Assembly: GCF_013315695.1 (NCBI RefSeq)
Contig: NZ_CP054353.1
Reading direction: 5' to 3' (one strand)
Origin: Escherichia coli
GTDB lineage: Bacteria; Pseudomonadota; Gammaproteobacteria; Enterobacterales; Enterobacteriaceae
DNA: 64,000 nucleotides
The notes under the pieces were generated by a model. The model worked only from the letters and a program-made list of their open reading frames with translations. It did no database searches and was not told the origin of the DNA. Position numbers and translations under genes: made by a program. Below, piece after piece: positions 52,749 to 55,338 of the stretch. How positions within the stretch are numbered: the first letter of the stretch is position 1; the number at the start of each line of letters is the position of its first letter.

Positions 52749-53522
52749 ATGTCAGTACCTCTCATTCTGACCATACTGGCGGGGGCAGCCACGTTTATTG
52801 GCGCGTTTCTCGGCGTTCTCGGGCAAAAACCCTCGAACCGCTTACTGGCGTTTTCGCTAGGATTTGCGGCGGGGATCATGTTGCTCATCTCATTAATGGA
52901 AATGCTTCCTGCCGCATTAGCCGCCGAAGGAATGTCACCTGTGTTGGGTTATGGAATGTTTATCTTCGGTCTGCTTGGCTATTTTGGCCTGGACCGCATG
53001 TTGCCACATGCGCATCCGCAGGATTTAATGCAAAAATCGGTGCAGCCGTTGCCAAAATCGATCAAGCGCACAGCCATTCTGCTCACTCTCGGCATCAGTC
53101 TGCATAACTTCCCGGAAGGGATTGCCACCTTTGTCACGGCGAGCAGCAACCTGGAGCTGGGCTTTGGCATCGCACTGGCCGTTGCGTTACACAATATTCC
53201 TGAAGGTCTGGCGGTTGCAGGCCCGGTTTACGCGGCAACGGGGTCTAAACGCACCGCGATTCTTTGGGCGGGGATTTCTGGACTGGCAGAAATTCTTGGT
53301 GGTGTGCTGGCGTGGTTAATCCTCGGTAGCATGATTTCCCCGGTGGTCATGGCGGCAATCATGGCGGCGGTTGCAGGAATTATGGTGGCGCTCTCGGTTG
53401 ATGAATTAATGCCGCTCGCCAAAGAGATTGACCCTAATAATAACCCCAGCTATGGCGTACTATGTGGAATGTCAGTGATGGGATTCAGTTTAGTGCTGCT
53501 ACAAACGGCGGGAATTGGTTAA
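52749..53522 (+). CDS. zupT: ZIP-family zinc transporter
   Basis: 257 aa from [10 protein letters not shown]...; AAGGAG RBS. Confidence 0.9.
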
Positions 53523-53579
53523 AAGCAACATCAGAAGTTGTCCAGCGCATGGACAACTTCTGCCAGCTTCACTAAAGCC

Positions 53580-53750
53580 TTATTCTACCTTTTCGGCTGT
53601 CTCTTCTCTCGTACTGTTTAAGTATTTGTTCCGCGCTTCAAGCAGTGCGTCTCTGTCCTGGCGAAACGCCCGACAATAACGTTTCAAATGCAGGAAATAA
53701 CCCACAACAACAAGAGCAATCAATACAATCCAGTACCAGGCGATAAACAT
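53580..53750 (-). CDS. hypothetical small membrane protein (56 aa from the ATG)
   Basis: Single predicted TM helix (FIAWYWIVLIALVVVGYFL); AAGG before the ATG at 53750; the track ORF starts at an upstream TTG. Confidence 0.35.
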   Translation of the reverse strand: MFIAWYWIVLIALVVVGYFLHLKRYCRAFRQDRDALLEARNKYLNSTREETAEKVE

Positions 53751-53940
53751 CCTTTTACCCTTAATATTTAACAATACTAAACATTTAGCGCATAAATTTC
53801 ACATATCCTTTTTCGGATATATTCATATGGTCGCATAATAACGGAACAATTATATGATTTTGATCATAATGAAAAAGAATGCCTGATATTAATGAAATTT
53901 TCTCATAGAAAGAGAAGCGGAATTAACATCTTGCTTAGCA

Positions 53941-53980
53941 GGGAAAAATAAAAACCGAAGCCTGCTACAACTTCGGTTTC
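53941..53980 (-). terminator. ribB rho-independent terminator
   Basis: Hairpin aaccgaag...cttcggtt followed on the minus strand by a T-run. Confidence 0.5.
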
Positions 53981-54011
53981 TTGATTAAGGCAGTAAATTA
54001 AGCAGCGGTTT

Positions 54012-54665
54012 TCAGCTGGCTTTACGCTCATGTGCCTGACGGTATGCCACCAGGTCTTCAATAGTCACGAGCGCCATATTGTGTTTATTGGCAAACTCAA
54101 TGCACTCTGGTGCACGCGCCATCGTGCCATCGTCATTAGTCAGCTCACACAGCACACCAGCCGGTTTAAAGCCTGCCAGCGTCATTAGATCAATAGTTGC
54201 TTCAGTATGACCGCCACGCGTCAGTACTCCACCTGCCTGCGCGCGAAGTGGGAAAACGTGGCCCGGGCGATTCAGATCAGAAGGTTTTGCGTCATCGGCA
54301 ATCGCTGCGCGAACGGTCGTAATACGGTCAGCGGCAGAAACACCGGTAGTCACACCTTCAGCCGCTTCAATGGTCACGGTAAAACCGGTGCCATAGGCGC
54401 TGGTGTTATTTTCTACCATCATTGGCAGATCGAGTTGTTTACGGCGATCTTCAGTAATGCACAGGCAAACAATACCGCTACCGTGGCGAATGGTCAGCGC
54501 CATCTGCTCAACGGTCATGGTTTCTGCCGGGAAGATCATATCGCCTTCGTTTTCACGGTCTTCATCATCAAGCACCATTACACCGCGTCCTTCACGCAGC
54601 GCAGCCAGTGCATTTTCAACACGTTCGAAAGGCGTACCAAAAGAGGAAAGTAGCGTCTGATTCAT
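54012..54665 (-). CDS. ribB: 3,4-dihydroxy-2-butanone-4-phosphate synthase
   Basis: 217 aa. Confidence 0.95.
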
Positions 54666-54699
54666 GGTAAAAAAACCTCACTAAAATTATGGTTACCAG

Positions 54700-54935
54700 A
54701 ATCAGGGCAGTCTTAGGAGTGGCGGCATATAGCCAAAATAACGTGAGCGGGTCCATGCCCGACAGAATCGTTACTCTCTCCCATCCGGACTCTAACCGTC
54801 GGCCCCGGAATTACACCGGATCTGCTGTCCTTTGAGTTCGCACCCAAAGCGCTCGCGGGCTTTCAACTGAGTTGATTTACCGCCGGTGGGGAATTTCGCC
54901 CCGCCCTGAGAATAAGCGGATTCACTATAACGCTA
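54700..54935 (-). promoter_or_regulatory. FMN riboswitch (RFN element) in the ribB leader
   Basis: Minus strand carries GGGCGGGGCGAAATTCCCCACCGGCGG and the downstream GGATGGGAGAGAG-type conserved segments. Confidence 0.8.
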
Positions 54936-55038
54936 ATGATTAGCGGCAGCAACGCATAGCTTCACATAATTCTGGTTTATGACTTACCCTTATCGCACTA
55001 CAATGGCACTCAACACCTATCAGTACAGGGAAACTACA

Positions 55039-55338
55039 ATGATTGACCCGAAAAAAATTGAGCAAATCGCTCGCCAGGTTCACGAATCAATGCCTAAAGG
55101 AATCAGGGAGTTCGGGGAAGATGTGGAGAAAAAAATCCGCCAAACCCTACAAGCGCAGCTGACACGTCTCGATCTGGTAAGCCGCGAAGAATTCGACGTT
55201 CAGACGCAAGTCCTGTTACGGACTCGTGAAAAACTGGCGTTACTGGAACAGCGCATCAGTGAACTGGAAGCGCGCAATAATTCGGTAGCAGATCTTCAAT
55301 CTCCTCCGGCTATCCCGCCTATTGATAAAGCAGAATAA
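55039..55338 (+). CDS. ubiK: ubiquinone-biosynthesis accessory factor (BMFP family)
   Basis: 99 aa from [14 protein letters not shown]...; coiled-coil. Confidence 0.75.

Follow-up and report, generated by a model that had tools for sequence, protein, structure and literature searches.

The 56-codon open reading frame (ORF) between zupT and ribB in the window, a stretch of 64,000 nucleotides of Escherichia coli DNA, is the annotated small-protein gene yqiD (b4756, YQID_ECOLI, WP_000469266.1). Overall, we are highly confident that the observations are best explained by a genuine gene, with a predicted single-pass inner-membrane product and a promoter that is probably activated by the anaerobic regulator FNR. 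That yqiD is a genuine protein-coding gene follows from the exact identity of the ORF to the annotated, immunoblot-validated YqiD and from the signature of purifying selection that it carries across Enterobacteriaceae. Hence, yqiD is almost certainly a real, translated gene.

The ORF listing shows a minus-strand ORF at 53580..53774, which encodes 64 residues from a TTG codon and 56 residues, MFIAWYWIVLIALVVVGYFLHLKRYCRAFRQDRDALLEARNKYLNSTREETAEKVE, from an internal ATG at 53750. Region 53500-54020 was matched by megablast in 4432 complete E. coli genomes, with a feature 'yqiD: protein YqiD' beneath the match. The same 171-nt coding sequence (CDS) is yqiD / WP_000469266.1 in K-12 MG1655 as well as in a genome that is 100% identical to the window, and exact protein look-up led to the UniProt entry YQID_ECOLI, found on at least 1000 contigs. 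Compared with the YqiD/DUF4051 family entry (b4756, YQID_ECOLI), the 56 residues, the position and the strand are identical and no difference was observed. Across 53500-54020, the window differs from K-12 at six nucleotides, two of which are inside the yqiD CDS and are both synonymous. The initial annotation was therefore wrong in calling the ORF unassigned, since it is annotated as yqiD in RefSeq E. coli genomes, including K-12, and as YQID_ECOLI in UniProt. Its description of the ORF itself was correct: 56 residues at 53580-53750 (64 from the TTG), one predicted transmembrane (TM) helix, a basic segment and a location between two terminators.

Translation of the gene had been reported. VanOrsdel et al. 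2018 (PMC6001520) detected YqiD, with an identical sequence and located between zupT and ribB, by immunoblot of a chromosomal SPA-tag fusion. [quoted passage not shown] The question of a real versus a chance ORF was thus already answered in 2018, when yqiD was named, annotated and shown to be translated. Elsewhere in the literature, a GFP reporter is driven by the yqiD upstream region (bioRxiv 10.1101/2025.06.10.658842), b4756 is cited as yqiD in a 2026 paper, and yqiD is listed in an NAD-RNA paper.

The length of the ORF alone is not above chance. When the 489-nt intergenic region (GC 0.38) was shuffled 2000 times by mononucleotide, an ATG ORF of 56 aa or more turned up in 319 cases (16%). 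It is in its conservation that the ORF goes beyond chance. A pattern scan using one genome per species retrieved 30 loci from seven genera, namely Escherichia spp., Salmonella enterica subspecies, many Citrobacter, Intestinirhabdus, unclassified Enterobacter, Phytobacter and Kosakonia, and the ORF is intact from the same ATG in all 30 of these other-species loci. Over codons 1-42, in the set formed by Escherichia, Salmonella, Citrobacter and Intestinirhabdus, the pooled pS is 0.66 and pN is 0.07, which corresponds to a dN/dS of 0.047. In the same 42 codons, variable columns number 18, 13 and 37 at the first, second and third codon positions, respectively. By segment, dN/dS is 0.10 over codons 1-20 and 0.04-0.10 in core segments; codons 21-40 have a pN of 0.054 with saturated synonymous sites, and the tail, from codon 43 to the end, has a dN/dS of 0.32-0.35. 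The initial annotation had pointed to conservation and to the synonymous-substitution pattern across enterobacteria as a check on the ORF, and the dN/dS of about 0.05 together with the third-position excess marks a translated gene. The initial annotation had also named frameshifts or stops in close relatives as evidence against the ORF, and none of the species loci has any.

These data also bear on the view that the ORF arose by chance in an AT-rich spacer and is neither translated nor functional. Its frequency in the shuffles and the lack of any Pfam or NCBIfam family above cut-off for YqiD would fit this view, but the low dN/dS with saturated synonymous sites and third-position excess, the intact ORF in seven genera and the published detection by immunoblot and ribosome profiling (PMC6001520) leave it a negligible probability. 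Hence, of the two readings left side by side by the initial annotation, a real small membrane protein or a chance ORF, purifying selection upholds a real gene and dismisses the chance ORF, membrane insertion being a prediction.

The neighbors of yqiD are zupT (52749-53522, plus strand) and ribB (54012-54665, minus strand). yqiD is a monocistronic unit, with the ribB terminator on one side and a terminator shared with zupT on the other (Table 1). As judged from its sequence, the ribB terminator protects yqiD against read-through from ribB. yqiD and zupT converge in 30/30 loci, with about 57 bp from stop to stop, and the order ribB, yqiD, then zupT on the opposite strand was also found by exact look-up in the distant family members P0141 and P0145. 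The ribB side is less stable: other DNA is present between ribB and yqiD in a third of the loci, and this spacer resembles an insertion hot spot across genera. The yqiD-zupT linkage may only reflect the general conservation of gene order in Enterobacteriaceae. yqiD is single-copy, with a median of one place per genome.

Two further elements of the neighborhood were recorded. In a strain carrying the divergent yqiD allele described below (L004:7413-12366, NZ_CP148423.1), a four-gene chaperone-usher fimbrial operon, encoding a fimbrial-like protein, an usher, a chaperone and a frameshifted pilus protein, is inserted so that it separates yqiD from ribB. No such operon occupies this place in the window strain, whose ubiK is directly followed by glgS. 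An FMN riboswitch (RF00050, 120.9 bits) is found upstream of ribB, on the minus strand at 54769-54917 of the window.

Table 1 Sequence features of the yqiD locus, given in window coordinates
Feature	Position	Strand	Basis
Terminator-like hairpin downstream of yqiD	53532..53562	-	13-bp stem with 6 GC pairs; common to convergent zupT
yqiD CDS, 56 codons and stop	53580..53750	-	ATG 53750-53748; ORF listing, annotation match, 30/30 intact loci
Fast-evolving charged C-terminal tail, codons 43-56	53583..53624	-	Raised dN/dS, variable length
Basic amphipathic juxtamembrane helix, codons 21-40, HLKRYCRAFRQDRDALLEAR, predicted cytoplasmic	53631..53690	-	Conservation, hydrophobic moment
Predicted TM helix, codons 2-20, FIAWYWIVLIALVVVGYFL, aromatic WYW belt at outer end	53691..53747	-	Hydropathy
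Predicted yqiD 5' UTR, about 70 nt	53751..53820	-	Sequence conservation profile
Shine-Dalgarno-like AAGGG	53758..53762	-	7 nt before yqiD ATG; read from sequence
Candidate -10, TGCGACCATATG	53824..53835	-	Invariant T, G, A, A-T-A columns in 28-sequence alignment
Palindrome ATGAT-N4-ATCAT	53854..53867	.	Invariant in 28/28; centre 110 nt upstream of ATG
Overlapping FNR site, TTGATCATAATGAA	53860..53873	+	Myers et al. 2013, Table S6, coordinate 3181683 in U00096.2
ribB intrinsic terminator, upstream of yqiD	53950..53981	-	13-bp stem, then T-run

Two start codons have to be weighed. Initiation at TTG 53774 would give a 64-residue protein whose short basic N-terminus, MLNIKGKR, would be cytoplasmic and would invert the topology or change it in some other way. 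The TTG is in frame in the window and an in-frame ATG occupies the equivalent position in many Citrobacter loci, but one-base changes in the length of an A-run ahead of the yqiD ATG shift the frame of the upstream codon in six loci (L006, L007, L008, L022, L023 and L026). In addition, the TTG has no Shine-Dalgarno sequence, whereas AAGGG precedes the ATG; every family member starts with M-[FYL]-I at the ATG; and both RefSeq and VanOrsdel et al. (PMC6001520) use this ATG as the start of yqiD. The 64-aa alternative of the initial annotation is therefore not supported, because single-base indels put its start out of frame in relatives, and we consider it very improbable. Sequence comparison indicates that the segment between the upstream TTG and the yqiD ATG behaves like a 5' UTR. 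The stretch from the upstream TTG/ATG to the yqiD ATG is highly conserved yet tolerates 1-nt length changes, and TTAAGGGTAAAAG, at the Shine-Dalgarno, is kept in nearly all Escherichia, Salmonella and Citrobacter loci.

With translation starting at the ATG, hydropathy and the positive-inside rule indicate that YqiD is likely an N-out/C-in single-pass membrane protein. The mean Kyte-Doolittle hydropathy of residues 2-20 is 2.43, well over the usual TM threshold of 1.6. Charges are biased, with five K/R in residues 21-35 and no charged residue ahead of the helix. The N terminus would be at the periplasmic face, since only Met1 precedes the helix, which opens with the WYW belt. On the other side, the C-terminal 36 residues are predicted to be cytoplasmic by the same two criteria. 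Residues 21-38 are amphipathic (hydrophobic moment 0.52), with a stripe formed by L22, C26, F29 and L36 and a basic face. In an alignment of 27 sequences of the YqiD family, M1, A28 and R30 are invariant, and I3, W5, R24, R33 and A35 are at least 90% conserved. The family consensus core can be written MFIAWYW-(TM)-h-KRYCRAFRQDRDALL, followed by a variable tail, for total lengths of 53-74 aa. Within these sequences, KRYCRAFRQDRDALL is a strongly conserved basic juxtamembrane motif. The functional core would consist of the TM helix and the amphipathic basic helix K23-R24-x-C-R-A-F-R-Q-D-R-D-A-L-L, the last 14 residues or so being a variable charged tail. AlphaFold, used with the 27-sequence alignment, gives a single helix for residues 2-55 with a pLDDT of 73, which is uninformative beyond secondary structure. 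No fractionation, reporter-fusion result or phenotype of YqiD was found in the papers searched.

A YqiD profile search of 1.84 billion representative proteins returned only 21 clusters. The named ones are from Escherichia (including E. fergusonii and E. albertii), Shigella, Salmonella, Citrobacter, Kosakonia cowanii, Phytobacter, Atlantibacter and unclassified Enterobacter. Many YqiD homologues bear the old label 'DUF4051', which survives only in source annotations; the current Pfam-A copy returned no DUF4051 model, either for YqiD or for the homologues so labelled. Membership of YqiD and of four homologues in a Pfam or NCBIfam family was rejected, the hits being sub-threshold and driven by the TM segment (DUF2621 at 19.8 bits for a cut-off of 27.7, NF038143 at 18 for a cut-off of 50). 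Profile hits among PDB sequences to UPF0335/GapR helices, with E values of about 0.05, were judged meaningless. Finally, a metagenome protein of 125 aa (P0146) consists of roughly the first 71 residues of ZupT fused to the last two-thirds of a protein resembling YqiD. Because zupT and yqiD are convergent, it is probably an assembly or gene-calling chimera and not a real fusion.

The predicted 5' UTR of yqiD is as conserved as the coding core, with conserved stretches TTAACGTTAAATGTTTA...TGTTAAATnTTAAGGGTAAAAG. In E. coli, this region (53751-53825) folds into two hairpins with an energy of -17.8 kcal/mol (z = -4.9 versus shuffles), the second of which pairs part of the AAGGG Shine-Dalgarno. RNAalifold, applied to 17 yqiD 5' UTRs across species, predicted no pairs, no consensus structure and no covariation, and a conserved UTR structure is not supported. 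As a separate observation, an ATATCC/GGATAT hairpin shows apparent compensatory variants, TACCTA/TAGGTA, in some Citrobacter, and the C. freundii group lacks it. When 53300-55100 was scanned against Rfam, only the ribB FMN riboswitch scored above threshold. Sub-threshold hits were SdsR and STnc240, the latter with 29 bits for a gathering score of 55, at 53943-54013 over the ribB 3' end and terminator.

Two alternatives would place the function of the region at the RNA level or under the control of an RNA. According to one, the conserved region acts mainly as an RNA, either an sRNA or a dual-function mRNA, with the ORF being secondary. The conservation of the 5' UTR, equal to that of the coding core, and its good folding in E. 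coli go in this direction, but substitutions in the ORF follow the codon pattern, the aligned UTRs lack a consensus structure or covariation, and no Rfam family matches above threshold at yqiD, which makes this alternative highly unlikely. According to the other, YqiD is a hydrophobic peptide resembling type I toxins, such as Ibs, Ldr, TisB or ShoB, and is silenced by an antisense RNA. YqiD shares with them its small size and single TM helix; moreover, its 5' UTR in E. coli is apparently long and structured, and an Ibs toxin gene is present elsewhere in the neighborhood. Against this, tagged YqiD accumulates in normal LB cultures (PMC6001520), and no sRNA family reaches the gathering threshold at the locus. 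Unlike type I toxins, which usually occur in multiple copies with a cis antisense sRNA, yqiD is a single-copy, positionally conserved core gene in seven genera, and its conserved hydrophilic domain of 36 residues sets it apart from these toxins. A toxin function is therefore most improbable, and we retain a protein-coding gene whose product is a predicted membrane protein.

Conservation extends upstream of the 5' UTR. We aligned the 150 nt upstream of the yqiD ATG from 28 sequences (Escherichia, Salmonella, Citrobacter and Intestinirhabdus). A palindrome (Table 1) is found at 108-111 nt from the ATG in 28/28 loci. It marks the upstream edge of conservation, the sequence beyond it being not conserved. 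Compared with the FNR box TTGAT-N4-ATCAA, the palindrome matches 8 of the 10 positions: the TGAT-N4-ATCA core is the same and both outer T/A positions are replaced. The candidate -10 can be read either as an extended -10 (TGn+GACCAT) or as CATATG/TATAGT. From this sequence, the transcription start site (TSS) is predicted at about 53817-53820. The centre of the palindrome would then be 40-44 bp upstream of it (about -40.5 to -43.5), which would fit the geometry of a class II activator, centred near -41.5.

Published in vivo occupancy of FNR coincides with this promoter. Myers et al. 2013 (PMC3688515) described an FNR peak at 3181647 (U00096.2), identified by three ChIP-seq callers and by ChIP-chip; its label is "5' of zupT/ribB", and its target and TSS are both given as 'Unknown'. 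In the same work, a sigma-70 ChIP-seq peak at 3181649 has a signal of 395 in aerobic versus 1002 in anaerobic conditions, a 2.5-fold increase (PMC3688515). Using the printed motif as an anchor, we converted the U00096.2 coordinates 3181647, 3181683 and 3181649 to window positions 53824, 53860 and 53826, respectively. The FNR and sigma-70 summits thus fall on the candidate -10, at a distance of 74-76 nt before the yqiD ATG. As a cross-check of the mapping, a separate 'ribB' peak falls on the ribB start codon. The FNR peak had remained an orphan without a target because yqiD was not annotated in 2013. The position weight matrix of Myers et al. (PMC3688515) preferred the overlapping site TTGATCATAATGAA, with a score of 12.32, over the palindrome; across species, the outer half-site of TTGATCATAATGAA is less conserved than the palindrome.

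Because the invariant palindrome matches both the FNR ChIP peak and an anaerobically enhanced sigma-70 peak, yqiD is probably activated by FNR, on top of a basal aerobic expression in LB; we lean towards this activation without strong confidence. The match of the palindrome to only 8 of the 10 consensus positions argues against it. FNR would not be strictly required for expression, since YqiD is readily detected in aerobic LB cultures. The promoter resembles class II FNR promoters, such as those of dmsA, narG and yfiD, in several respects: a TGAT-N4-ATCA inverted repeat is positioned 40-44 bp or so before the predicted TSS, no -35 is recognisable, FNR is bound in vivo, and sigma-70 occupancy is higher anaerobically. 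In contrast with these promoters, the outer positions of the yqiD palindrome are A/T-swapped (ATGAT...ATCAT), the promoter is active aerobically, and its TSS is a predicted one.

A further argument against FNR activation is that the Kosakonia and Phytobacter orthologues of yqiD lack the palindrome. In these genera (L032-L036), a different promoter-like element, CTACTTATAAAGTGGTA, is shared at about 50-70 nt upstream of the yqiD homologue, and it appears related to the CCACTATAGTGG palindrome found at the candidate -10 of the Citrobacter freundii group. Control by ArcA was considered and rejected: the TGTTA-like direct repeats of the UTR are spaced by 10 bp, not 11. The ArcA ChIP supplements mention neither zupT nor ribB. 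A sigma-70 consensus scan gave one weak site, TTAATA-18-TATGAT, which was discarded as its -35 is not conserved across species. Beyond this locus, several of the FNR peaks tabulated by Myers et al. (PMC3688515) that are likewise unexplained or ambiguous adjoin the small-protein genes ynhF, yncL, blr, yneM and ibsD.

Two deeply diverged alleles of yqiD exist in E. coli. About 870 of 5426 complete genomes have a version, MFIAWYWIVLIALLAGGYFLHLKRYCKAFRHDRDALLAARSKLDKRSDKEVFEKHQ, whose protein is 66-69% identical to that of the window. An example is found at L002:2938-3108 (strain Z1323CEC0015), as compared with 53580-53750 in the window. Over codons 1-42, dS between the two alleles is about 1.2, comparable in magnitude to the dS that separates the window from Salmonella loci. 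The C-terminal third of the divergent allele and its downstream spacer are unalignable by megablast. This allele resembles that of E. fergusonii, and a recombinant form, P0013, exists. Natural inactivation was also observed. In the blood isolate FCI23 (L039:2501-3359), IS1B has taken the place of the 5' part of yqiD together with the beginning of the neighboring fimbrial operon, so that only the 3' end of yqiD, unannotated, is retained. As yqiD is truncated by IS1 in at least one natural isolate, it is therefore dispensable there. In enteroaggregative E. coli (EAEC) 042, Orf3334 (CBG36162.1), a 'DUF4051 family' protein, is one of only three genes among 23 tested that are up in a mutant of aar, an AraC negative regulator (PMC5570504). 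Orf3334 is probably the orthologue of yqiD, because the family is single-copy in E. coli.

What YqiD does can be approached by analogy with known small membrane proteins. AcrZ (acting with AcrB), MgtS (MgtA/PitA), PmrR (LpxT) and CydX/CydH (cytochrome bd-I) are, like YqiD, shorter than 60 aa with one N-terminal TM helix. They also have in common with YqiD a predicted N-out/C-in topology, a stress-responsive promoter of their own and no enzymatic domain. On the other hand, YqiD has no sequence similarity to any of them, and its cytoplasmic helix is longer (36 residues) and strongly conserved. Given this analogy, YqiD could be an accessory or regulatory subunit of a larger membrane protein, a proposal that we regard as tentative. 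Speculatively, its TM segment and basic helix would dock onto a larger inner-membrane protein or complex, or onto an anionic lipid surface, and the docked YqiD would tune the activity or stability of its partner under low oxygen. Candidate partners would be ZupT, the metal importer encoded next to yqiD, or an anaerobic complex for respiration or transport. The complete proposal, in which yqiD is the missing target of the orphan FNR/sigma-70 peak and encodes an anaerobically induced protein that modulates a larger membrane protein via its R-x-x-R-Q-D-R-D-A helix, is somewhat more doubtful still. Other small membrane-protein genes, ynhF/cydH, yncL, blr and yneM/mgtS, are also at FNR ChIP peaks (Myers et al., PMC3688515).

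The most specific version of a partner function designates ZupT. YqiD would act on it as MgtS does on MgtA or MntS on MntP, and tune Zn2+/Fe2+ uptake at low oxygen. yqiD and zupT are convergent in every locus examined, including members that are only 35-40% identical, whereas insertions recur on the ribB side. Conserved residues at the membrane interface are His21 and Cys26, where Cys20 is also present in Citrobacter and Salmonella. FNR also controls Fe2+ uptake via feo. The yqiD promoter, for its part, is bound by FNR in the published ChIP data. However, convergent genes do not share a transcript, Enterobacteriaceae broadly keep their gene order anyway, and neither His21 nor Cys26 is found throughout the family: P0148 contains no Cys, and the His is missing from P0141, P0143 and P0145. 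ZupT is thus an unlikely partner, and the broader idea of a modulator of some larger membrane protein keeps its tentative status.

What this analysis newly brings is the connection of yqiD with an orphan FNR peak, which provides the gene with a testable regulatory context. In addition, the conserved functional core, made of the TM helix and the KRYCRAFRQDRDALL helix, is defined as a target for mutagenesis. Together, the FNR promoter link, the conserved core and the two alleles could guide a first experiment on YqiD. If YqiD is indeed an FNR-induced modulator, it would be a new small-protein regulator in the FNR regulon of Escherichia, Salmonella and Citrobacter.
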